Positions 7,301 to 58,763 of a DNA stretch of 64,000 nucleotides are shown piece after piece. Made by a program: the position numbers and the translations under genes. The notes under the pieces are model-generated. The model was not told the origin of the DNA, did not search any database, and saw only the letters and a program-made list of their open reading frames with translations. Origin of the DNA: a virus. Taxonomy: Duplodnaviria > Caudoviricetes. Every line of letters begins with the position of its first letter. Within the stretch, counting starts at the first letter, position 1. The stretch spans positions 32,001 to 96,000 of the IMG/VR virus record IMGVR_UViG_3300013426_000025; one strand, 5' to 3'.

Positions 7301-7694
7301 GAGTAGGTTGTTCTTTTCTCTGTTCTTCTAATAACCTTTCTTTATCTTTTGCAAGTTCTTCTCTCTCTTTAGAAGTCATGTAGTCATTTTCTAAGAGATA
7401 TTTTATTGCCTCTGGTGTATACAGATCCTCAAAGTCACTTATATCTTCTTTGTATCTTCTATCAAATGCTTCTGCTATTGCTTGATTATTATAATAAGTA
7501 TCTCTTTGCTCAGCATCCATAGAGTTAAATACATCTTTTCCAAATTTATTTACAAATTGTTGGTTTTTGTAAACTCTATCTAACTGTTTGAAAGATTTAC
7601 TCCCTTTATAACCACTATCAAGTAAATGCTGTCTCCAGATAGAGTAATCCTCATTACTCATATCATTAACACCTTTTAAATATTCAATTCCCAT
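1398..7694 (-). CDS. Giant virion cargo protein (2098 aa) of the crAss RNAP/ejection gene block
   Basis: Size, coiled-coil N-half, E/K/T-rich linker, position after muzzle and cargo genes; no RNAP catalytic DxDxD motif seen. Confidence 0.6.
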   Translation of the reverse strand: MGIEYLKGVNDMSNEDYSIWRQHLLDSGYKGSKSFKQLDRVYKNQQFVNKFGKDVFNSMDAEQRDTYYNNQAIAEAFDRRYKEDISDFEDLYTPEAIKYLLENDYMTSKEREELAKDKERLLEEQRKEQPTLLGRIGQSLSQSRGVSVANRSQEDADAAFLGAVDKKRERLMQDARVIEAETQAENPINKQITESFENYYIDQMNSDIVNGARKTINEIDDFFTRTDEDTGQVLFPNYATFSENGELKLSDSEKIKLMSQYASFASLAEEAHEKGDDRMASYYYAMGAEFVENAVKRNIYDTRTSWRRFEINASNIAINAATMVVALPSDLWGVALDLGAAFDDDIKQQAINWHMGLKKDGSKAPLLLNQEFIGDWQNTGTFDPVKQQRIKTMGLVNANTHIRPAGEEYKWFTKETLGEGVQMLGYLMPTLVEMAVTKSASAPMKAMQRKLVTQAGKAGVKAQKAVKLAAEAGEGVAKASNYALHTIPMAASEARSAWDAVYDEVYSKGMEEAFSNPEFARNVIESAVEEQIRKEFPDGDVLKRVGEDTNALVNVTSARREELRQQYTKDYQNFVKKKVEEAAKEAAFTAFNTTFASHMLKNLPTDRLMAGWKYYKSPFSKLGEAGKHAAWFDYTKKIGGSIFGGALDEFTDEMVNQGSQQLGLDVGNNYLQHLYNTGTIGPVSSVFKNIFDFSTSYIEGASGATMDPSTWQQAFVGGVAPLLQASPKVGMFDPSTYKNWRQNSTIDNLNKMLFNPILSDIGEVYNERKKHNEEQARIEKIMQEHAGDYKNLMTAFSMLSAMENDKAVRDKKNTKDDHFTMGFQFLINTEELSQEHPEVVEQYMQELQEAAQGNITEEEIQQYIAANEKRLKKGTNEANVSEAREQIQKNAQEMLKLHEAYKSMSSMLNSVYGDSMSKEAKNQLTYMSLMGQQWQERLQQMQKELGVAGNATNTGVGALTERGIQEREQQVRERIKEIDDILQNKKVTGLREKYFKKKKKELQESLKMLDNPALLTAEEILNLSANERNNMFHHKKSNYTYEQEEEIEKAENMLAQKDPEYLSKLEDIETLQDKIEYNNEAYKYILSKPQELEQLNDYNKKAMLRSLWDKVISNQANTLHSVLSTTPINADFYKKLNSASRGVLEELSKIGFVNPDGTADTKRNTVLYNAIENNKFFDEVNKIIDTWDILKQGKDNIKRNVMIITESAKTTKDAILALERAIDDPNVDNNTKSWIDNILNSIDQVGYQRSATKVQKREAKRKREENKAKEEKAKQEEKKQIEEKPKVDEYEPTQEEKEKAVKEGQQESIDFSDEDNSIKTTEKSNETKPEESTKSNEEPTKEDPTTPETTSESVEESNHTETTESVNSPTEEEEVQTKGVEVQSMPTNLPTSIEDVDRETSQADKASSFLGLPFYRYVIEPLRKFKTIVLRKSRSETDIMGRFFKWCDNMGINMQEIVDYELARIRELNPDVQVVITNPVANELDDACLEKIPLLVVEYTDAVKKIHGGKKGGVITADGKNYLVIGSMGYISSKDRNNPTAQEKEFRNRFLPAFYTHGMHTFVGDRANDRFTVYPYFKSKIKFIATGNLVKRLATDEESSIRSVSELINDATRNPLGVQFDEIPWMIQMTTKYVMSKALNASVNLVRDDIGNAGNLFMLVKSSNGDYIPIAIKPTKVGELKDSPLKDHLIETIRMLYNTDHAVRYNAVRELCHWINLDNTNNIFIGTKDRNNITIRANGVDVFRLNLDKPSADQSAEVQSLINAIFNVDNGFRVNFTASTIKNVDEMKMMDEAGALQTDAALLGTAGSYFDIYNVDTDGKPINVQQARPIEARRGSALVEKVGKTVLLDGKTYRIIDNVYYDENDKVITDSETIQRVDYVVQYNDNPAIKPDIKDGVYDAYVVNTDSNNPLVLEFDQGNHVKVLKGEDALKVIDRIEKKKQAEKAKEKIEAEGKKEQLDFDFEENNNSNTTTEPTVEPNAKESRDNNKKPAPVQTSVSFEEEPEQPKPKRVRKSKKNVNEIEEKSSPTLHNSDNLHTFAGIIRNKENRKRVKEVLTKKFGDALPKEQEDQEAFLRSKKILTQGINNIDTWLEMIENCR
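1580..1610 (-). promoter_or_regulatory. Bacteroidota sigma-A-type promoter inside the 3' end of the 2098-aa gene
   Basis: Minus strand TTG-N6-TCA-N11-TACCTTTG; matches -33 TTG / -7 TAnnTTTG. Confidence 0.7.
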
Positions 7695-7708
7695 ACTTAA
7701 TTTTTAAT

Positions 7709-9358
7709 TTATACTCCAGCGTCTGGGTCATAAAAATCTTCTTCAGTTTGTGTTACATCAGAAGCCAGAGTAGATTTTGTTGAACTCTTAGGTACTATTG
7801 CAATCTCATATTCACTCATATCACTATTGTAATACATATAATATTCAAAGTCATGTGGATTAGCCTCGCCAATTTGAGACTTAATGTATTTCTTAACATC
7901 TTCAGACTCTTCGTTCATTGTCTGTAATGTTAAATTAGTACTAGTTTTACCATTACTTATGGCCACATCATCCAATTTTCCACTTGTCAAATCCTCATAA
8001 GAAGTAATAATAGGATGTTCATCACGTTTAAATATCCAACCATGTGATTTTTTCAAATCTTTGGATTTTTCCACCACTCTTACAGAACCTTTCTTATCTC
8101 CACCTCTAACTGTAATAATTACAGCATTTTTAGAGAGTAAAGCAGCAGATGGTTTCTTCCTTTTTCTTCCTGTTACAGAATTAATATCATCACTTTTATC
8201 GTAAGTAACAATGTTATTATTTTCATCGAGTATTGGAACTCTTGTATATGGATTGTTTGTTATATAGTCTTTACCATTCTTGTTTTGAACAACATAAAGA
8301 TTATGCATTACAGGTTGTCCATTATCATCTCTTTGTAGTTTAGGAACAGTTTTTTCAACCCCATTTTCATCAGTATAAGTTTCAGTTTGCATATCGCTTT
8401 CTCTGCTGCCTGGTGTATCATCATAAGTGTATTCCCCAGTGTCAGGATTAATTGCTATATACACATCTTTACCGTCTTTATTTTTAGCAAGTACTCTATA
8501 AGAAAGAATTTGTAAGTCATCGTCTGTACCACTACCTGCAAGTTGTTTTTTATAATTAGCCTCATACAAATCCCAATTCTTGTTGCTTACAAGACTTGCA
8601 TCATCTACAATACCTTCTAAGATACCAGTTACAATTCTATCTCTAAGTTGGTCTTTTTGTGTATCTGTATATTGTCCATTGTTTATACCATAACTATCAT
8701 ACACTTGGTCAACTATTTGTGATAAGTTAGAACCTTCAGTACCTAAAGCAGTTAAAGCATCTTGAGTAGATGCACCTAATCTTCTCATCTCTAAGTATTG
8801 ACTACCAAATGCTTGTGCTTGTTGTAAAGTAATAGGCAATCTACTTGCATAAGCTTTACCTTCTTTAAAACCCGTATCTTCCAATTCTGATTGACTTACT
8901 GCTTTGTAAGTAGGATTAGGATTTTTCAGGAAGAAGTCTACACCAGCATTACTGAAATCGGTATCATAAACAAGGTCTCCTTTAGGATTATTTTTCCTTT
9001 GTTCGTCTGCCATACTTTTCCAAGTATTATATGCTTCTTTAATAGGAACAATATCTTCTGCAAATTGTCTTCTTAAATCCATAGCAGATTGTATATCTCT
9101 ATCTCTATTCCAACCTGTTGTTGCAAGATTATTAGCAGCCTCCTTTAATTGTTTTTGATAAGCATCATAAGTAGCATAGGCTTGCTCACTACCTTCCATT
9201 TCTGCTAATTTCTTTAAATCAGCAGTAGCATCTATCATATCTTGATACCTTTTCTCATAATCTTTATATGTCTGCACATAAGCAAGTCCTGGTCTTAAGT
9301 AATCTTCTACAGATGTAGGATTAAAAGTAGAACCTACATGAAATCCATATTTAGGCAT
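7709..9358 (-). CDS. Putative virion cargo/ejection protein (549 aa)
   Basis: Synteny between cargo gene and giant genes; helical N-terminus. Confidence 0.5.
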   Translation of the reverse strand: MPKYGFHVGSTFNPTSVEDYLRPGLAYVQTYKDYEKRYQDMIDATADLKKLAEMEGSEQAYATYDAYQKQLKEAANNLATTGWNRDRDIQSAMDLRRQFAEDIVPIKEAYNTWKSMADEQRKNNPKGDLVYDTDFSNAGVDFFLKNPNPTYKAVSQSELEDTGFKEGKAYASRLPITLQQAQAFGSQYLEMRRLGASTQDALTALGTEGSNLSQIVDQVYDSYGINNGQYTDTQKDQLRDRIVTGILEGIVDDASLVSNKNWDLYEANYKKQLAGSGTDDDLQILSYRVLAKNKDGKDVYIAINPDTGEYTYDDTPGSRESDMQTETYTDENGVEKTVPKLQRDDNGQPVMHNLYVVQNKNGKDYITNNPYTRVPILDENNNIVTYDKSDDINSVTGRKRKKPSAALLSKNAVIITVRGGDKKGSVRVVEKSKDLKKSHGWIFKRDEHPIITSYEDLTSGKLDDVAISNGKTSTNLTLQTMNEESEDVKKYIKSQIGEANPHDFEYYMYYNSDMSEYEIAIVPKSSTKSTLASDVTQTEEDFYDPDAGV

Positions 9359-11195
9359 GTTTACCTCCTTTCTTCTTTGTTTTTAAATTACCACCAAATG
9401 CTTTCTTATTTGTTGCATTCCATAAGTCATAAAACGCTGCAATAACATCATTTAAGGGAACACCTGAATTTGCAGTTGTAACTCCTGCAATATCTTTATT
9501 TTGTCTATCCTTACCAAAGTTACCAATACTATCAAACAAACTTGTAAACGCAGCACTTCTACCTTGTTGTGTAGCATCTCTTTCAGCATTTCTCATACCA
9601 GCAATATATTTATAGGCATCAGCAATTCGAGCATCCCTACCTTGATTTAATTGTTGTGCTTTCATATTCATATCAGCATTTGTACTATCTGTGTCTCTAT
9701 TAAATGCTAATACTCTACCAAGTAACTCATCATTATATTGCCTTGCTGCTTGTGCTGCTTGACCTTGATTTACTTGGTCTGTGTAAGCATCTGCCATTAC
9801 AGCATTAGTCATAGCACCAGGTGTAGCACCATTTTCAATTATTGCTCTTCTATTACCTAATGCTATATTGTTTGCTTGATTAATTACAGAGTAAGGGTCA
9901 ATAGGATTATAAGTCATCTTCTGAGTAATATACTTAGGAGACACTTCTCTAATACTATCTACTTTATTTTGAAAACTATTTATATTACTATAATCAGGAC
10001 TATCTATAGCAGACATTAAAGCAGCACTAGCATTACCAAATATAGGTGCGCTTCTTAAAATGTTATTCCAAGATTCTTGTCTTTTTATATCCCATGCTTC
10101 TCTTGTCAAAATATCTTTCTTATTATCAGGATGTCTTTTATTATAATCCGTTTGTCTATCTACGTATTTATCATATAACCTATCTCCTAAACCGTATTTA
10201 TGTCCTAACAAACCACCTTTTGCAAACTGTCTAAGCAGTCTTTGTTCTTCTTTTTTCTGCTTTAATGTTTCTTGTTCTTGTTGTAATCTTCCCATTAAAG
10301 CCTTTAAACCATTATTACTAATCATATCATTAGGTCTTTCTTCAGATTCTTTTTGTATCTTCTTTGCAGCATCTGCAAATGTTAAATTCTTACCTGTAAG
10401 TTTCATATCTTGTTTTACTTTCTCAGGAACTTTTAATCTGTTACTGAATACATAATCATCATATATTACTTCATCTTCTTCTACAAGATTAGGTAATCCA
10501 TCACTTGCAATTCCTTGAGGTACACCTCCTAAAGGATTTTGCTCATGGGTACCTCCACCATCTATGGTTCTAACTCCATTAGTAAAGTTACTATCTATAT
10601 TACCACCAAATGCTTTTAGGTTTCTCAAAGCATTAAAACTATCTTGATAATTAAGGTTTAGTGCTGCATTTTCAATCTTCCTATCCATTAACTCATTAGC
10701 AGCCTTTGCTTCTTGATTTAATTGGGCAGCAAGATTATTTGCTTTAACTCTTTGAGAAGCAGCAAGTAAACCTGCACCAGCAGTTCCTCCAACTCCCATG
10801 GCAGCAGAAGATATTAATTTACTAAATATACCTCCACCACCTGACATGCCTTGTATAATACCATTAGCACCTGCACCAGCAATACCTACTCCAAGTTCTG
10901 CATCAGACATCATAAAGTCTTTGTAGGAATTATTTTGATTCAGTTTCTTTCTATCATTATACAATTTATCAAAGTCATCCCAGTTATTTACATCTACTGT
11001 CTGAGCATTTAAGGAATCTATTTGGTCCCACTGTTCAGAACCATCATTTTTCAATTGAGCAAGGCTTGGGTCTGCAAGACCGCCTGCTAAAGTAGTACCT
11101 AAAATAGCCAAAGCATCACTACCTGCTGTATTACCACCCCTATCAAACCTATGATTAGGGTATTGAATTAACATTTTATTTTTCTTCTTATTCAT
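9351..11195 (-). CDS. Virion cargo protein (C1-like, 614 aa)
   Basis: Gly/Ala-rich hydrophobic segment; GGTHEQNPLGGVPQG...LVEEDEVIYDDYVFSNRL motif recalled from crAss cargo proteins; directly after muzzle gene. Confidence 0.6.
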   Translation of the reverse strand: MNKKKNKMLIQYPNHRFDRGGNTAGSDALAILGTTLAGGLADPSLAQLKNDGSEQWDQIDSLNAQTVDVNNWDDFDKLYNDRKKLNQNNSYKDFMMSDAELGVGIAGAGANGIIQGMSGGGGIFSKLISSAAMGVGGTAGAGLLAASQRVKANNLAAQLNQEAKAANELMDRKIENAALNLNYQDSFNALRNLKAFGGNIDSNFTNGVRTIDGGGTHEQNPLGGVPQGIASDGLPNLVEEDEVIYDDYVFSNRLKVPEKVKQDMKLTGKNLTFADAAKKIQKESEERPNDMISNNGLKALMGRLQQEQETLKQKKEEQRLLRQFAKGGLLGHKYGLGDRLYDKYVDRQTDYNKRHPDNKKDILTREAWDIKRQESWNNILRSAPIFGNASAALMSAIDSPDYSNINSFQNKVDSIREVSPKYITQKMTYNPIDPYSVINQANNIALGNRRAIIENGATPGAMTNAVMADAYTDQVNQGQAAQAARQYNDELLGRVLAFNRDTDSTNADMNMKAQQLNQGRDARIADAYKYIAGMRNAERDATQQGRSAAFTSLFDSIGNFGKDRQNKDIAGVTTANSGVPLNDVIAAFYDLWNATNKKAFGGNLKTKKKGGKHA

Positions 11196-49258: not shown

Positions 49259-49279
49259 ACATTCTTCAAGTTTAATTTG

Positions 49280-49350
49280 AGGCTAATGTAGGAATCGAAC
49301 CCACAAATGTTGTTTACAATACAACTGTTTTACCATTAAACTAATCAGCC
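49280..49350 (-). tRNA. tRNA with UGU anticodon (Thr), atypical body
   Basis: GGCTGAT/ATTAGCC acceptor, GTTGT-ATTGTAA-ACAAC arm, GTGGG-TTCGATT-CCTAC; no encoded CCA. Confidence 0.75.
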
Positions 49351-49361
49351 TGTAGGAGGAT

Positions 49362-49730
49362 TTAATCCTCCTTTTTAGTATTTTTCACTACTTCTTTTTT
49401 CTTATCAGGTGTCTTGGTTTTTTTACCCGCCTTAAAAACCACAACCTTACCATCATCTGTCACAGACATATCTAAGGTTTTACCTTTGAGGATGTCACCA
49501 AAGTTTTTCATAAGATAATCAGACATTTGCTTTAGAATTGAAGCAACTCTGCAAAACCATCCTCTACAAAATCCTGCGAAGTATAGAACAGGATAACCAA
49601 TCAAACAAAATAAACCAGTAGACCATGAAACAAAAAATGCTCCAATAATTGCACCAACAACAATCAAAATGCCTACTACACCAATTACAATGTGTTTAAC
49701 CAACTCTTTATTACTTTTCTTCTCTTCCAT
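49362..49730 (-). CDS. Two-TM membrane protein
   Basis: Two hydrophobic segments, basic tail. Confidence 0.6.
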   Translation of the reverse strand: MEEKKSNKELVKHIVIGVVGILIVVGAIIGAFFVSWSTGLFCLIGYPVLYFAGFCRGWFCRVASILKQMSDYLMKNFGDILKGKTLDMSVTDDGKVVVFKAGKKTKTPDKKKEVVKNTKKED

Positions 49731-49755
49731 ATTCTTTATATATTATATAAGTAAG

Positions 49756-49829
49756 CGGGTCAAAGTGGACTTGAACCAATAACCTTCTGATTAACAGTCA
49801 GATGCTCTAACCAATTGAGCTATTAACCC
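49756..49829 (-). tRNA. tRNA-Asn(GUU)
   Basis: GGGTTAA/TTGACCC, TCTGA-CTGTTAA-TCAGA, TTCAAGT loop, G73. Confidence 0.9.
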
Positions 49830-49832
49830 TAC

Positions 49833-49945
49833 AATAAACTTCTTAGTCATACTCTCCTAACTTACACTCAGGTCAACTTAATGTACCCAACTGAGACTTG
49901 CACTCATTCACTCTATGGCTACAACTCTATTGCAAGAAGTTTATT
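49833..49945 (-). ncRNA. Candidate structured RNA between two tRNAs
   Basis: 12-bp closing stem AATAAACTTCTT/AAGAAGTTTATT; inner TAGCCATA/TATGACTA; TGAG-TGCAAGT-CTCA hairpin. Confidence 0.45.
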
Positions 49946-49949
49946 TTAG

Positions 49950-50023
49950 TGACTCCTAAAGGACTCGAACCTTTGACCCACAGCTTAGAAGGCTGTTGCT
50001 CTATCCAACTGAGCTAAGGAGCC
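49950..50023 (-). tRNA. tRNA-Arg(UCU)
   Basis: GGCTCCT/AGGAGTC, ACAGC-CTTCTAA-GCTGT, AAAGG-TTCGAGT-CCTTT. Confidence 0.93.
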
Positions 50024-52515: not shown

Positions 52516-52727
52516 AATCCTAACTTTCTTAATATTCTATTTCTCTTTTCTTTATCCTTAAAGTACCCCACATACTTACCTTTAGGTTCCTCTAAATTAT
52601 TTGCTGCATGATACTTATTACTTACAGGTAATGGTTTTATTCTTGTATACTCATACTTCCTATCATACTCTATAGAAGTACAACAATAACCATCTCCTTC
52701 AATCAATTTAATCCTGTATCTTATCAT
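52455..52727 (-). CDS. Hypothetical basic protein
   Basis: ORF overlapping both neighbours. Confidence 0.4.
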   Translation of the reverse strand: MIRYRIKLIEGDGYCCTSIEYDRKYEYTRIKPLPVSNKYHAANNLEEPKGKYVGYFKDKEKRNRILRKLGLWIDKKHIGMNSQCMKKQNT

Positions 52728-53049
52728 ATAATCCTTGTTTTAAAAGTAATGCAAATCCTCTACCTAATGTTTCTACTAATGGTTCGTTACCATTCTCTTC
52801 AATAAACTGAAATGTACATAAAATAGCATGTACAAATTCATGTAGTACTATAGTTTGAATTTCAAAATCTGGCATATCTTCACCCTTCTCATTCACTAAA
52901 GAAACAATAATATCTTTAGTACTACCATTATGCCAACCATCACAAAATTCATTAGGGTCATTATCTATCTTATCTCTTGTAAAGTGTACCTTATATACAC
53001 TACCAAAGACTTCAATTTCAAAATCTTTCCATTCTCTTTTCTTCTCCAT
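52708..53049 (-). CDS. Small zincin-like metallopeptidase
   Basis: VLHEFVHAIL...NEPLVE. Confidence 0.7.
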   Translation of the reverse strand: MEKKREWKDFEIEVFGSVYKVHFTRDKIDNDPNEFCDGWHNGSTKDIIVSLVNEKGEDMPDFEIQTIVLHEFVHAILCTFQFIEENGNEPLVETLGRGFALLLKQGLYDKIQD

Positions 53050-53159
53050 ATCTTATATTTTTACTTACTTCACATTTTGACACAGTAATGTGCTATGATG
53101 AGAGTATATCTAAAAGATTAAAACTAAGTTATCAAGTATTACTTTACAACTTAAATCAT

Positions 53160-53505
53160 CAAATAACTTTATTCAATATCCTTTATTGAAGTTTTGATAT
53201 AGTAATCCCTTAGAGTGGAACCCTAACTTATTGCAAATCAATGAGTTGTGTTTCACTCTCACCTTGCCATCACTGGTAGGTCTATCTATAAATCTTGAAT
53301 AGTGGCGGTTAATACTTCCCTAAAGACTCTTTACCCTCAACCCTTTCTCAGACTAATTGGTGAGTCACACTATTCTTGTATCTATAGACTGTTTTGACAG
53401 AGGGTTGATAACTAAAGTGCCCTCTTAAGGCCTCATTCTTTTACCTATTAAGTAGTGATAAGGCGATATACTGACTTAGTCATATCAGTAGTCTATTCAT
53501 TAAAA
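53160..53505 (-). ncRNA. Candidate structured ncRNA or long leader
   Basis: Promoter at 53512-53542, no ORF in track, nested stems (ATAGACT/AGTCTAT, GAATAGTG/CACTATTC, AGAGGG/CCCTCT); ends approximate. Confidence 0.45.
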
Positions 53506-53511
53506 ACTATG

Positions 53512-53542
53512 CAAAGATAGTAAAAATATTTGATATATGCAA
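53512..53542 (-). promoter_or_regulatory. Bacteroidota-type promoter
   Basis: TTG-N6-TCA-N11-TATCTTTG. Confidence 0.8.
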
Positions 53543-53609
53543 GTACTAATGTAAAATACTTAACAATTTTAATATAGTAAAGGTAAGACTAAATTTAAAT
53601 CAGGGCTCT

Positions 53610-53870
53610 AGTATGTAGGGATTGCTCCCTACATACTTAAACAATTTGATGGTTAAAGCATCAATAAGACACCGCTTCCATTACCCCTTAGCCTTTCACC
53701 CTTAGCTGGGAGGTGTTTTACATGTCCTCACATACACTTTTTACATGGTCCAACATGGGTCTGTCCTCTTTTCCTTGATAATTGTTCTCAGGGTTCTTAT
53801 TCCCACTTTCCCCTTTAATGCAGGTAAATGTTTAGCCCACAGGTTGCTCTCTTTTCCTTGATATAATCTC
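53610..53870 (-). ncRNA. Candidate stand-alone sRNA of about 260 nt
   Basis: Promoter at 53875-53905, strong 3' hairpin AGTATGTAGGGA/TCCCTACATACT at 53610-53637, no ORF in track. Confidence 0.5.
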
Positions 53871-53874
53871 AGTG

Positions 53875-53905
53875 CAAAGGTAATATATTTATCTGATATA
53901 TACAA
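53875..53905 (-). promoter_or_regulatory. Bacteroidota-type promoter
   Basis: TTG-N6-TCA-N11-TACCTTTG. Confidence 0.75.
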
Positions 53906-54031
53906 TAGAAATAATAAAATTGTAATAGGTACAAAAAATTTTTTTTATTTTATTTTTTTTGAAATTTTTTTATATTTATGAAAGTTGGAGAATTTTTTCT
54001 ATATTTATAAAAGCGAGGGATAATCCCCCTA

Positions 54032-54356
54032 CACACCACCCCTTCCATATTTTGATGGGTCTATTCCCCCCATTTGTACTATTATGAAATGTGATGCTGG
54101 TGACCATTGTGTTATCTGTGCATTTCAAGATAGTTGTCCATTGTATGATGAGTATATAGACTACCGTCTTGAAATGTACAATGAAAGTGTGTCAGATGCT
54201 TATTAGTGTCTGACATACTTTAATCAATAAATCTCCACACCACTTCTCCTATATTTTGATGTGGTTATATTGTGTAGTATAAATAATGTAGCACTTACAT
54301 TGTGTGTTACATTATCTAATCAATAAATCTCCACACCACTTTGGTTATATTTTGAT
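54032..54356 (+). repeat. Three copies of CACACCAC-N7-ATATTTTGAT (candidate early promoters)
   Basis: 54032-54056, 54236-54260, 54332-54356; copies 2 and 3 also share upstream TAATCAATAAATCTC. Confidence 0.8.
54084..54206 (+). CDS. 40-aa Cys-rich micro-protein
   Basis: MKCDAGDHCVICAFQDSCPLYDEYIDYRLEMYNESVSDAY; lies between motif copy 1 and a hairpin at about 54184-54221. Confidence 0.45.
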   Translation: MKCDAGDHCVICAFQDSCPLYDEYIDYRLEMYNESVSDAY

Positions 54357-54442
54357 ATTAGGATTTTGTGGAATTTACCCAGTCACAAAGTCTATTATAA
54401 CAATTGGGTACATGCTACTATAATAGAGAGTAGTGAATTACT

Positions 54443-54757
54443 ATGGCTGCAACAAACATTAAAGAGCAGTGGTCATTGCGAGAGTGGTGCAGAATGTACG
54501 GTACCACATTTACCAGAGCACCATTCACTAACAAAGAAACAGGAGAGAAATTCAACTCACTTGTCTGGAGCCACAATGGTGGTCTTATCTTTGTTAATTT
54601 CTCTCAAAATCTTGGTGAGTTGAATAACAAGGAAATGAGAGAATTGAAGGAGCAACTGTCTGTCTACCAAGTAGTTAAGGAGTCTGGTGAAATGGGATTT
54701 TCACTTGGCAAAACAGGCTCCATTAACGGCACAGAAGAGTCTCTGGACTTTGACTAA
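54443..54757 (+). CDS. Early protein, beta-rich with acidic tail
   Basis: FTNKETGEKF; ends EESLDFD; followed by a hairpin at about 54774-54808. Confidence 0.7.
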   Translation: MAATNIKEQWSLREWCRMYGTTFTRAPFTNKETGEKFNSLVWSHNGGLIFVNFSQNLGELNNKEMRELKEQLSVYQVVKESGEMGFSLGKTGSINGTEESLDFD

Positions 54758-54814
54758 TCTCTCCAAGAATCAAACTATCTATCCATACAATTTGTGTGGG
54801 TAGATAGTACTTTT

Positions 54815-55432
54815 ATTCAGTAAACCATTGTATTTATCCTTGTGGTGCAGGCTAACCATTACAATGATTTACTGATTTTAACAATAAGTGTTCATAGGGC
54901 AAGCACTTTCAAAACAACCTATGCTGGATTCCGCTAGTGTGCTAGGACCTTTAACAGTGGGGAACCTGTGGTTAAACTGTTACTTAAACCAAGTCTCATA
55001 AAGTTAGTGGAGAGACTCTTTTGCTAGTTATGCTGTATAAACTAGTGAGGTCATTAGACCAAATGTCATATAGCAGTGACATCATGCAGTGAAGAGACTA
55101 GGCTGCATTTTAACACTCCTTGCAACGAGTCTTGTGGAGTATAAATCAGGAAAGACACGTATCTATTATTAATTTCTTTTAATAGTTTTCTTTGTAGATA
55201 GACCAAACTGAGTCATTCTCAGCATGAATATTTAAAGTAAAACTATTACTTATATAGAATAAGTTAAAACACGATAGGGTCATTGTAAGTTCGACTCTTA
55301 CAACCTCTTAGAGATATATAATAGTTCTAGACACCATTATATATTGCTCAGATGAGTAAAGTGGATGACGGTTCGTCACTTATTCTATTCTTTACTTATA
55401 AGGGATTGGTTTCCCTTATAGGTTCTAAGTAA
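54815..55432 (+). ncRNA. Dense array of structured RNA elements
   Basis: ORF-free; three pseudoknots, a kissing-hairpin pair and a T-loop multibranch domain (see findings). Confidence 0.55.
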
Positions 55433-55437
55433 ATAAT

Positions 55438-55698
55438 ATGATGTTTAACTTACAAGGTGATACTTTGGAAATAATACTTCCACAAGGTCACACTATGTCA
55501 GAATTGAACACCATGGCTAAAGCAGAGTTATCTGCATTGATTAAAGAAGGTCAATTCTTCGGAAAAGACATCAAAATCAATGGTAAATGTACTACTGCAA
55601 TGGCTATTCTTTTAGGGCATGAACTTGCACATGTATGTAAGAGTGTAAGTATCTTTGACCCTAAAGAGAATACCTATGTCATGTGTGTACAACATTGA
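55438..55698 (+). CDS. csx3: Csx3/Crn3-like ring nuclease homolog
   Basis: GKDIKINGK...LLGHELAH...VSIFDPK...YVMCVQH matches the recalled Csx3 pattern GVVISGR...LAHKYAH...VAVYDPR...VVQSH. Confidence 0.7.
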   Translation: MMFNLQGDTLEIILPQGHTMSELNTMAKAELSALIKEGQFFGKDIKINGKCTTAMAILLGHELAHVCKSVSIFDPKENTYVMCVQH

Positions 55699-55783: not shown

Positions 55784-56134
55784 ATGAAAACAACAATATT
55801 CGTAGTAAATGAGTATTTTAATGATGTAAATACTCAGATTGCCTTCACTGATAAGGAGGAAGCAAAAAAATATATCAAAGAAAGACAAAAATTCTTTGAT
55901 GAAATAGATATGCTGTACAGAGAACATGACAGTCTGTCTTTTGTACTTCCTGTATTATCTATTATCGAAATGCCACTACATGGTATTGAGATTATCAGAA
56001 AGGCTGCTATAGAAGATTATCTTAATTGCAGAAAAATGTGGGAGGATTATTTAGCAAGTAACATTGAAGATGATGAATTTGTTGATAATCTCAACAACGA
56101 TTTAGATGAACTTCTAAATAATAAGAACTCCTAA
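55784..56134 (+). CDS. Hypothetical early protein
   Basis: AFTDKEEAKKYI motif; A-rich start context. Confidence 0.65.
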   Translation: MKTTIFVVNEYFNDVNTQIAFTDKEEAKKYIKERQKFFDEIDMLYREHDSLSFVLPVLSIIEMPLHGIEIIRKAAIEDYLNCRKMWEDYLASNIEDDEFVDNLNNDLDELLNNKNS

Positions 56135-56187: not shown

Positions 56188-56409
56188 ATGAAACAGGGAA
56201 AAACAGTGCTCGGAGACACTATAATCCTCCGTAAAGAACAAGTACTGATAGTAGGTGAAAATCATTTTCAAACCTATTCGTTTCCTAACAATGAACTCGC
56301 TAAAGAGTTCTATAATAGAAAATGTATGCACCCTAAAAGAGGTAGAAAACCTAATAGGGTAAGAGAATGTGCTGTTGTTTATTATAATCAATTAATCATA
56401 CAATTATGA
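56188..56409 (+). CDS. Hypothetical early protein
   Basis: Leader TTATTAAC-x-ACTAAACAACAATACAA-like, similar to that of the previous gene. Confidence 0.55.
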   Translation: MKQGKTVLGDTIILRKEQVLIVGENHFQTYSFPNNELAKEFYNRKCMHPKRGRKPNRVRECAVVYYNQLIIQL

Positions 56410-56597
56410 TAATCAACAATTATCTCAATAAAAGAACAAATTGTCTTCGCACTCTTTCAATAGAGTGTGAGGACAATAATATTGATATTGACCTTATAAT
56501 AAAACATAAGGGATTTGAGAAATTGAATACATTAAACTTGAATAAAATAGAAGCAAAGAGTTTGATGTATTCTTTAATGGAGATTTTTGACCAATGA
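56406..56597 (+). CDS. Hypothetical early protein
   Basis: ATGA-coupled ORF. Confidence 0.5.
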   Translation: MIINNYLNKRTNCLRTLSIECEDNNIDIDLIIKHKGFEKLNTLNLNKIEAKSLMYSLMEIFDQ

Positions 56598-57479: not shown

Positions 57480-57565
57480 ACCTCTGTGTTGGAATCAGAA
57501 GACAAGCAAGTCTTAAAAACTTGTGGTCAGAATTGACCGTGTGGGTGCAAGTCCCATCAGAGGTA
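57480..57565 (+). tRNA. tRNA-Leu(UAA)
   Basis: ACCTCTG/CAGAGGT, CAAGT-CTTAAAA-ACTTG, long variable arm GGTCA-GAAT-TGACC, A73. Confidence 0.88.
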
Positions 57566-57595
57566 CAAATTATTAACTTATTAAATAATAAAAGT

Positions 57596-57853
57596 ATGAA
57601 AGAAAAGAAAAAGATTTACAAATTGTATTCTCAATCTCATAGTATTGGGAATCTGTCAATGGAAAAAGAGGCTTATTATTCTAATAAAGAAACTGCAATA
57701 CAAGAATATAAGGCTCTTAAGAAAGCAATTCTTGATGAGTTTGATAAAGAACATCCAACTATTATTGAAAAGAATAATAATTTCAAACTCTTTAATGGTG
57801 CTATTAATAGTTGGATAGAAATAGATTTAAGTGAAATTGAATTATCAAATTAA
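57596..57853 (+). CDS. Hypothetical protein
   Basis: Start moved to MKEKKK because the track start lies inside tRNA-Leu. Confidence 0.6.
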   Translation: MKEKKKIYKLYSQSHSIGNLSMEKEAYYSNKETAIQEYKALKKAILDEFDKEHPTIIEKNNNFKLFNGAINSWIEIDLSEIELSN

Positions 57854-57860
57854 TTATTTT

Positions 57861-58763
57861 ATGGGAGTAGAAATAAATAAAAAAGAATTAATAAAATTAC
57901 CATTTGTTAATTGTTTTTGTAACTATTTTGTTGATGAAAGCAATGTTTATGATGCAAATGGTCGTGTATTAGTCAAAACAATTAGAAAAGAGAATAATAG
58001 GAATAGACTTTATATTAATCTCAAAAAGGCTAACGGTGAATATAAACAAATTAAATTGAAATCCTTAATTGTTTTAGGACATCTTTTTTCTAAATACAAT
58101 AAAATAGATTTGGATTTTTACAGTAACAAACTTTTTGAAGGGGAACGTAGTGGTAGATTTGAAATATATCATAAAGATTCTGACCCAACAAATTGTGCAT
58201 TTTCTAATCTTAGAATAATAGATAAAGTAAAGAACATTACTGTAACTCAAGATACACAATATGATATTGGTATTTTACATAATTTTGAGTACAAGAAACG
58301 TAAAGAAAGGAAGAAAAAGATAGAAGAAGAGGAACAAATTACACCAATGGTTGAAGATAATAAACTAGAGAGTGTTGATGTAAACAAACCTTGTAAAGAA
58401 GAAGAACATGACAAACTGTTGCCTCTGTATTATATCAATGCCAATCATGAGATTAAGCAAGTCAGTACAAAAGAAATCACTGATGCTTTTCCATTTATCT
58501 TTGCAGATGAACAAGACGCTAAAATGTTTACATCAATGATTGTTCTTAGGTTACTTTATAAGAATTGGAAAGAAGGAAAAGATTTAATTGGGGGAAATAT
58601 TCAATATAACCCAAAATATAAGCGTAATCATTGGATTATAGGGTCAGCAACAAATAGTCCTCTTAGTAATCTATTTGCAGGCACATTAGCCTTTTCTGAT
58701 AAAGAATCTTGTAAGAAATTCATTCAAGAAAATAAAGAATGGTTAAACGGACTACTTGGATAA
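57861..58763 (+). CDS. NUMOD4/HNH-like domain fused to a C-terminal domain
   Basis: EIYHKDSDPTNCAFSNL; acidic linker; C-terminus resembles ORF 61045-61479. Confidence 0.6.
   Translation: MGVEINKKELIKLPFVNCFCNYFVDESNVYDANGRVLVKTIRKENNRNRLYINLKKANGEYKQIKLKSLIVLGHLFSKYNKIDLDFYSNKLFEGERSGRFEIYHKDSDPTNCAFSNLRIIDKVKNITVTQDTQYDIGILHNFEYKKRKERKKKIEEEEQITPMVEDNKLESVDVNKPCKEEEHDKLLPLYYINANHEIKQVSTKEITDAFPFIFADEQDAKMFTSMIVLRLLYKNWKEGKDLIGGNIQYNPKYKRNHWIIGSATNSPLSNLFAGTLAFSDKESCKKFIQENKEWLNGLLG

Follow-up and report, generated by a model that had tools for sequence, protein, structure and literature searches.

A short-form Csx3/Crn3 family protein in a crAss-like phage: a candidate viral ring nuclease against type III CRISPR signalling

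Does a phage genome that holds no cas genes encode a ring nuclease of the kind found in type III CRISPR loci and, if so, what might the enzyme do for the phage? The question is raised by an 86-amino-acid (aa) open reading frame (ORF) at 55438–55698 (plus strand, stop codon included) of the stretch of DNA analysed here, referred to below as the window, which comprises bases 32001–96000 (64,000 nt) of the 105,701-bp IMG/VR virus record IMGVR_UViG_3300013426_000025 (CheckV completeness 100%). A first-pass annotation, made from the sequence alone, had proposed a Csx3/Crn3-like ring nuclease, an assignment that fold, profile and residue comparisons have now borne out: judged from its profiles and its predicted structure, the product, P0001, is a true member of the Csx3/Crn3 family (Pfam PF09620, Cas_csx3). 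The function that we favour, with a probability of roughly 0.6, is that of a viral Crn3-type ring nuclease that would degrade cyclic tetra-adenylate (cA4) and so block cA4-dependent type III effectors; cA4 is the best guess at its substrate that the sequence allows.

Membership of the Csx3/Crn3 family

The ORF is not a chance frame, because a search of 5.8 billion clustered proteins returned 37 close homologues (83–105 aa, 51–71% identity), residues are invariant across the family and the AlphaFold2 model is confident (predicted local distance difference test score, pLDDT, 92.1). In the alignment of 35 of the 37 homologues, G49, T52, T53, G60, H61, L63, H65, S69-V-S71 and F73-D-P-K76 were invariant, H86 was at least 90% conserved, and position 50, a lysine in P0001, was arginine in at least 90% of the homologues. 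All of the motifs on which the first-pass annotation had relied were present, namely GKDIKINGK (matching GxxIxINGK) at residues 42–50, GHELAH at 60–65, IFDPK at 72–76 and the C-terminal H86. The frame opens with ATGATG and, since most homologues begin MF..., translation may in fact begin at the second ATG, at 55441.

The AlphaFold2 model, built on a 35-sequence alignment, has the β-β-α-β-α-β-β topology of the small Csx3 domain, a distant relative of CARF and STAS domains, and its top match among 48,161 PDB representatives (VIA-align) was A. fulgidus Csx3 (AfCsx3; 3wzh_A, Z 8.6, root-mean-square deviation 1.9 Å, 76 of the 86 residues). Second came the sensor domain of Cat1 (CRISPR-associated TIR 1; 9mud_K, Z 7.5, 84 residues), with all remaining matches at Z ≤7.5. 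The top 13 Foldseek matches were all Csx3/Crn3 entries (E 7e-3, probability 1.00), including 6yud; in BFVD, Foldseek found no viral structure that was convincingly related (best E 0.017, TMq 0.37). STAS-domain and MlaB-type proteins were also among the fold matches (Z 5.0–5.5), which brings in the reading that P0001 acts on RNA or outside defence, as a Mn-dependent 3′ deadenylase or as a STAS/anti-sigma-antagonist-type regulator in host takeover. Csx3 was indeed first described as an RNA-acting protein, AfCsx3 having been reported to trim A residues off RNA 3′ ends in vitro (Yan et al. 2015, cited in PMC7371418). The STAS matches are, however, far weaker than the Csx3 match, AfCsx3 cuts RNA about 600-fold more slowly than cA4, and close homologues of P0001 occupy type III operons, which ties the clade to cyclic oligoadenylate (cOA) signalling; we therefore consider such a role very improbable.

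The G-H-E-L-A-H motif invites still another reading, that of a small HExxH zinc metallopeptidase, and the Pfam eCIS_core HExxH model gave a weak match (E 0.14, 12.8 bits against a cut-off of 22). This candidate was rejected, and has practically no chance of being correct, because the glutamate varies, with T or I at the position of E62 in four close homologues (P0005, P0006, P0007 and P0010), and because the predicted fold is a β-α-β sandwich of Csx3 type and not a zincin; there was no peptidase among the structural matches.

Sequence comparisons connect P0001 to the classical family through intermediates. A phmmer search with P0001 of 1.84 billion representatives returned 76 proteins, the longer of which pass the PF09620 gathering score (P0040 at E 4e-19, P0066 at E 3e-9, also P0071, P0074, P0077 and others; phmmer E-values of the passing proteins from 4e-19 to 1e-6), and the relative P0028 matches Nostoc plasmid genes that carry the NCBI annotation 'CRISPR-associated protein Csx3'. 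The profile comparison suggested for the first-pass assignment came out in its favour, in that hhalign matched the phage-type family (profile A1) to a long-form Csx3 profile (A4; 17 proteins, 16 of them Pfam Csx3-positive) with a probability of 99.7% (E 1.4e-25, 80 columns), and a mixed profile (A2) matched AfCsx3 at E 2.5e-4. Two other results of these profile searches were set aside: the designed Kelch repeat protein SAKe6AR, top match of the mixed profile, owes its place to a DPxxNxW-like motif and is a repeat artefact, and the alcohol-dehydrogenase matches (E 0.014), the only ones that the narrow profile A1 obtained against the PDB, are spurious.

Within the family, P0001 belongs to a distinct short-form clade, delimited by sequence, that escapes detection by Pfam. 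In 52 homologues, including P0001 and the CRISPR-linked proteins P0113 and P0114, the last conserved His is exactly the final residue of the chain, whereas Pfam-positive classical Csx3 proteins (91–131 aa; for example on the Nostoc plasmids NZ_CP046704 and NZ_CP151101) continue for a further 10–24 residues, typically ...SH(D/G)xxxxxGDLI. In the maximum-likelihood tree the two forms are split by a branch with a Shimodaira–Hasegawa-like approximate likelihood ratio test (SH-aLRT) value of 100, with one long-branch exception on the wrong side; internal resolution was poor because the protein is so short (86 residues). The first-pass annotation had noted that the usual C-terminal extension is missing. 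This is real, P0001 stopping at H86, and because the whole clade ends at the catalytic His the absence is a subfamily trait and not damage; since P0113 and P0114 also end there, the C-terminal segment is dispensable for CRISPR association. A tree of 86 residues cannot tell whether the gene passed from cell to phage or from phage to cell, so that 'captured', the word used in the first-pass annotation, is an inference.

Catalytic residues, predicted dimer and proposed function

In AfCsx3, H57, H60 and H80 are absolutely conserved, the H60A and D69A variants are inactive and R71A and H80A are strongly impaired, and cA4, which is contacted by S44, G45, R46, I49 and R71, lies between two successive dimers, with the 'D69 face' of one on one side and the 'H60 face' of its neighbour on the other, its cleavage being Mn2+-dependent (PMC7371418). 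Hidden Markov model (HMM) and hhalign alignments place H61, H65, D74, K76 and H86 of P0001 opposite AfCsx3 H57, H60/61, D69, R71 and H80. The invariant H61 and H65, with the highly conserved H86, accordingly represent the 'H60 face', and D74-P-K76 and N48-G49-K50, aligned with D69-P-R71 and S44-G45-R46, the 'D69 face'. The H-x3-H spacing, which the first-pass annotation had taken as a trait of Csx3, holds for bacterial Csx3 proteins, in which the entire signature H-x3-H-x8-DPK-x9-H, with Lys in place of Arg71, recurs at identical spacing, but not for the archaeal AfCsx3 (H57-x2-H60, then H61).

The His residues also separate P0001 from the sensors of the family. Cat1, a Csx3-family cA4 sensor (PDB 9MUD), holds cA4 between stacked dimers, and no ring nuclease activity was detected in it (PMC12162218); it is an effector, whereas P0001 has no TIR domain. 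Cat1-like sensor domains of proteins combining TIR and Csx3-family domains kept LPxG, GR-TT and FDPK, all shared with P0001, but carried Ala and Asn at the two His positions of H-x3-H and lacked the terminal His. All three His were retained in the stand-alone proteins, whether phage-borne or CRISPR-linked. This contrast, in which the triad is kept in the phage clade and lost in the binding-only domains, is the best sequence-level argument for the phage protein being an enzyme and not a passive binder.

The competing reading here is that P0001 is a cA4 sponge or filament-former that binds its ligand between stacked dimers with little or no turnover and protects stoichiometrically. Proteins of the Csx3 family bind cA4 tightly (apparent dissociation constant <100 nM) and turn it over slowly, the Csx3-type domain of Cat1 binds without cleaving (PMC12162218), phage sponges for other immune nucleotides are reported as a known strategy, and four homologues (P0045, P0054, P0057 and P0088) lack the His/Asp motif, so that binding-only variants probably exist. 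Set against this, H61, H65, D74 and K76 are invariant, and H86 at least 90% conserved, in P0001 and its 34 closest homologues, and the Cat1-like binding-only domains lost exactly those His, a pattern expected from selection for catalysis; we regard the sponge as unlikely. As for the four homologues themselves, they are short forms without H-x3-H and/or DPK (for example ...GRDIAPL...FDMR...) and may be natural non-catalytic derivatives, sponge-like or regulatory.

The first-pass annotation had also suggested a comparison of an AlphaFold dimer with A. fulgidus Csx3, and the predicted homodimer resembles the archaeal one. Two copies of P0001 were predicted to pair with an ipSAE of 0.89, against 0.00 for the best of three controls; among proteins of solved structure, 20 of 30 that are pairs of one chain came up to this score, as did 1 of 23 that are single chains. 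Contact agreement across runs was at least 97% and partner pLDDT at least 93. The predicted interface runs through helix 53–64, with H61 touching H61 across the two-fold axis, in agreement with AfCsx3, whose H57 and H60 lie on the dimer symmetry plane (PMC7371418). Because a like dimer (AfCsx3) has already been solved, this prediction may reflect mere likeness and not independent proof.

Taken together, P0001 is like AfCsx3 (AF_1864; PDB 3WZG/3WZH/3WZI, 6YUD, 6VJG) and M. mazei Csx3 in its fold, its predicted homodimer with His on the axis, its equivalents of G45, R46, H57, H60/61, D69, R71 and H80, its small, stand-alone form and the presence of close relatives in type III-B operons. It differs from AfCsx3 in its length (86 aa, ending at the H80 equivalent, with a C-terminal segment of about 30 residues absent), its H-x3-H, its Lys for R71, its escape from the Pfam model and its location in a phage without cas genes.

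A mechanism is proposed on the model of AfCsx3. P0001 would form a symmetric homodimer through helix α2, in which the H61/H65 pairs of both subunits would converge on the two-fold axis to bind a divalent metal ion, probably Mn2+, while a second dimer would offer its opposite face (N48-G49-K50, D74, K76) to cA4. The ring, held head-to-tail between both dimers, would be cleaved to linear di-adenylate while H86 pins the ribose. Made by the phage, probably early, P0001 would remove the cA4 produced by host Cas10, and cA4-activated effectors (Csx1, Can2, Cat1-type TIR NADases) would then stay off. There is precedent for relief of this kind, M. mazei Csx3 expressed from a targeted plasmid having given partial but significant relief of cA4-dependent type III immunity (PMC7371418).

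A number of points weigh against the proposal. Scanned directly against Pfam, NCBIfam, PHROGs and PDB sequences, P0001 gave no Csx3 match, so family membership rests on profiles, transitive links and fold. Because the short form has no C-terminal segment such as AfCsx3 carries, its tetramer contacts and its kinetics may differ, and H-x3-H and Lys for R71 depart from the archaeal enzyme, though both are normal in bacterial Csx3. Crn3 is cooperative and slow (0.075 per min in multiple turnover); unless the protein is made in large amounts, such kinetics are not an obvious fit for an anti-CRISPR. In some Bacteroides the type III signal is SAM-AMP and not cA4 (PMC12830947), and the host of this phage may be one that does not use cA4. 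Early expression, finally, is plausible by analogy but is read from gene position only.

Homologues in type III operons and on mobile elements

The CRISPR-linked relatives agree with the description of P0001 as a ring nuclease of 'host type', since homologues 52–53% identical to it lie within bacterial type III operons. P0113 (88 aa, 52% identical) is encoded directly upstream of a complete cmr1-cas10-cmr3-cmr4-cmr5-cmr6-cas6 operon on a contig titled Deltaproteobacteria bacterium TL4. In the phylum of a metagenome-assembled genome titled 'uncultured Cytophagia bacterium', 4 of 167 genomes gave matches: P0114, which aligns without gaps over 86 aa at 53% identity, is encoded 20 bp downstream of RAMP genes; two are C-terminal domains of TIR fusion proteins with a Cat1-like architecture, beside RAMP genes and in one case also beside Cas10; and the fourth is cut by the contig end, in a genome without a Cas10 or RAMP match. 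About one third of the 167 genomes had a Cas10 palm-domain match, an upper bound because an E. coli control also matches.

Three loci in this material deserve description. At L028 (1203–1970, minus strand) and L029 (11711–12409, plus strand), proteins with TIR and Csx3-family domains carry sensor domains 33% identical to P0001. Directly downstream of P0114 (L027, 3–1018, minus strand) lie a SAVED-domain ORF (169 aa) and then a TIR-domain ORF cut by the contig end, an arrangement that suggests a split or unusual effector in the P0114 operon.

From the identity to the L028/L029 sensor domains, and from the habit of the family of binding cA4 head-to-tail between dimers, it could also be proposed that the P0001 dimer mimics a host Csx3-type sensor, stacking on a cA4-loaded Cat1 or Crn3 dimer, capping the growing effector filament and, with its intact His face, cutting the cA4 'glue'. 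This analogy is speculative and, in our judgement, improbable; if it were true, P0001 would be a dominant-negative filament terminator specific to hosts whose type III effectors use Csx3-family sensors.

The separate SAVED and TIR ORFs behind P0114 also bear on the possibility that P0001 acts on another signal, whether cA3, cA6, a cyclic tri- or dinucleotide of a cyclic-oligonucleotide-based anti-phage signalling system (CBASS) or another messenger. The TIR-SAVED-Crn4 effector TSR1 is activated by cA3 (bioRxiv 10.64898/2026.09.16.751991), the P0001 model matches CBASS Cap5 and other SAVED sensors at Z 5.3–5.4, so that the fold serves several ligands, and Csx15 and Crn4 are examples of how broad the specificity of small ring nucleases can be. 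Yet both characterised branches of the Csx3 family are cA4-specific (Crn3) or cA4-activated (Cat1), the residues G45, R46, D69 and R71 with which Crn3 contacts cA4 are conserved in P0001, and no CBASS linkage appeared in any context examined. We hold a different messenger to be unlikely too, and the suggestion in the first-pass annotation that CBASS signals might be a target found no support.

In wider searches, homologues were found at three other loci in IMG/VR and at two loci by a pattern scan of the genome collection; tblastn of P0001 and P0114 against 50,697 GenBank phage records gave no match, and megablast of the P0001 region found nothing. Members of the clade occurred on 22–96 kb contigs with a giant LPD38/RadC protein, or RtcB and a helicase, or DnaB and DNA methyltransferases, on a 72.6-kb IMG/VR virus without a crAss-type capsid gene (L005 record), and on an element of plasmid- or phage-like character that also encodes a ParM-type actin and a MazE/PIN pair. 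None of the sampled phage- or plasmid-like contigs with the gene had cas genes nearby; the phage, too, lacks the classical position of a Csx3-type gene beside a type III locus, a feature of context and not of the protein. In BLASTP comparisons of the loci the Csx3-like gene was the only gene common to the window and the other mobile-element loci and, on this sequence evidence, its behaviour is that of a single-gene cassette that moves on its own, in many cases with a hairpin or terminator in front of it, as for several homologues on other elements.

On two phage-like gut-metagenome contigs of about 62–65 kb, a Csx3-like gene (L011, 5524–5781) stands between a 5′ gene for a small HTH_17 protein and two 3′ DNA methyltransferase genes (7365–9965). 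Judged by gene order, this resembles a cluster of anti-defence genes, possibly with a regulator akin to the anti-CRISPR-associated (Aca) proteins.

The viral origin of the record is plain. Its capsid, portal and large terminase proteins match phage head, portal and terminase PHROGs, and TerL, the large terminase, is 57.6% identical to that of uncultured phage cr116_1, 51% to that of IAS virus and about 49% to those of Bacteroides phages of the PhiCrAss series, which agrees with the earlier identification of the carrier as a crAss-like phage. Because the record ends overlap by 42 identical nt (G000:C1:1–60 and 105642–105701), the genome is probably circular or terminally redundant, despite its IMG/VR class of linear. 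Cas10 and RAMP matches were absent from the whole 105.7-kb record and no CRISPR-like array was present in the window, as the first-pass annotation had stated for the cas genes and array of the window.

The P0001 gene comes second among the ORFs of a rightward block, about 39 kb long, that starts at about 54.4 kb, after a 1.4-kb intergenic region, and wraps past the record end; the leftward block of structural and giant proteins stops at 53049. The gene lies about 1 kb into the rightward block, amid small unannotated ORFs and two tRNAs. Five neighbouring ORFs (54443–54757, 55784–56134, 56188–56409, 56406–56597 and 57521–57853) had no Pfam family and no homologues adjoining a Csx3-like gene on other elements, and no conserved partner or Aca-like regulator is proposed from them. 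The gene is preceded by a 630-nt leader with no plus-strand ORF of at least 40 aa, which had an RNA fold z-score of −2.96 (20 shuffles) and no Rfam match; in the vicinity of the gene Rfam matched only the two tRNAs. The 12-bp hairpin at the end of this leader (Table 1) could be an operator, an RNA structure or a remnant of a cassette boundary. A sigma-70 promoter scan was no better than shuffled sequence (33 found, 28.8 expected) and we therefore claim no promoter. In the crAss-like phage phi14:2 an injected virion RNA polymerase transcribes the early genes, early transcripts have no common upstream motif that could be detected, and the long intergenic regions that open the rightward early region are heavily transcribed (bioRxiv 10.1101/2020.03.07.982082); it is the resemblance to this layout that makes early expression of P0001 plausible.

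Table 1. Positions in the window of the P0001 gene elements and of neighbouring features
Feature	Position	Strand	Description and basis
Terminator-like hairpin	54774–54808	+	16-bp stem and T-rich tail; closes the upstream 104-aa ORF; 5′ limit of the ORF-free leader
ORF-free leader	54809–55437		Precedes the P0001 gene
12-bp hairpin	55395–55422	+	Sequence and RNAfold; ends 15 nt 5′ of the start codon
N48-G49-K50 codons	55579–55587	+	Equivalent to cA4-contacting AfCsx3 S44-G45-R46; HMM alignment
His pair H61-E-L-A-H65	55618–55632	+	Equivalent to AfCsx3 H57 and H60/H61, metal-binding 'H60 face'; HMM alignment to 3wzg_A
D74-P-K76 codons	55657–55665	+	Equivalent to AfCsx3 D69-P-R71, cA4-binding 'D69 face'; alignment, invariant
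C-terminal H86 codon	55693–55695	+	Equivalent to AfCsx3 H80; protein end; HMM and hhalign alignments
tRNA genes Thr-TGT, Asn-GTT, Arg-TCT	49279–50023	−	
Last gene of the leftward block	52708–53049	−	113 aa, H-E-F-V-H motif
Divergent intergenic region	53050–54442		1.4 kb, between leftward structural and rightward blocks
Repeats of about 36 nt	54029, 54233, 54329		Three copies within the intergenic region
tRNA genes Arg-TCT (second), Leu-TAA	56913–57566	+	Just downstream of the Csx3-like gene
HNH ORF	57831–58763	+	310 aa, among small rightward genes

Several of the neighbouring features merit description. The repeats in the intergenic region (CTCCACACCAC...TATATTTTGAT), two of which lie within 76-nt units placed 96 nt apart, could be early promoters, operator sites or an origin. 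The 113-aa protein at the end of the leftward block matched phrog_1233, a group of unknown function (E 9e-11), with no Pfam match, and may be a small metallopeptidase-like protein. The phage tRNA genes number five in all, and the 310-aa ORF, which matched an HNH endonuclease PHROG (E 3e-5), may be a homing endonuclease.

Relation to known viral ring nucleases and significance

Viral ring nucleases are an established counter to type III CRISPR, and those in the searchable literature belong to AcrIII-1/Crn2, Csx16, Csx20, the Crn4 homologues or a viral SAVED protein. When 28,114 phage genomes were surveyed in 2025 with ring-nuclease HMMs, AcrIII-1 was recorded in 36 genomes, Csx20 in 4 and Csx16 in 2, with no Crn3 listed (PMC12409355), and our search of the literature found no paper on a phage Csx3 or linking Csx3 to crAss-like phages. 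The Csx3 family and the ring-nuclease strategy are known; the novelty lies in a viral, minimal short-form subfamily and in its occurrence in Crassvirales.

Compared with AcrIII-1/Crn2 (DUF1874), the established viral cA4 ring nuclease, P0001 would have the same role, the destruction of cA4 in opposition to type III CRISPR, and like Crn2 its family is found both on mobile elements and in CRISPR loci. The folds are unrelated, however, and AcrIII-1 is metal-independent and encloses cA4 within one dimer, whereas Crn3-type enzymes are metal-dependent and hold cA4 between a pair of dimers. With Csx16, Csx20, the Crn4 homologues and the viral SAVED AcrIII protein P0001 would share the character of a host-type cOA-degrading enzyme on a mobile element, although these belong to other families and folds.

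If the favoured reading is correct, a Crn3-type phage gene would enlarge the viral anti-CRISPR repertoire by one more enzyme family, and would supply a concrete, testable counter-defence gene in Crassvirales, a dominant order of gut phages in which known counter-defence functions are few. It would also define a minimal form of the enzyme, of 85–90 residues, that is present in CRISPR loci and on mobile elements and is missed by current Pfam models. The short form is at the same time a compact subject for the mechanism in which two dimers share one substrate.

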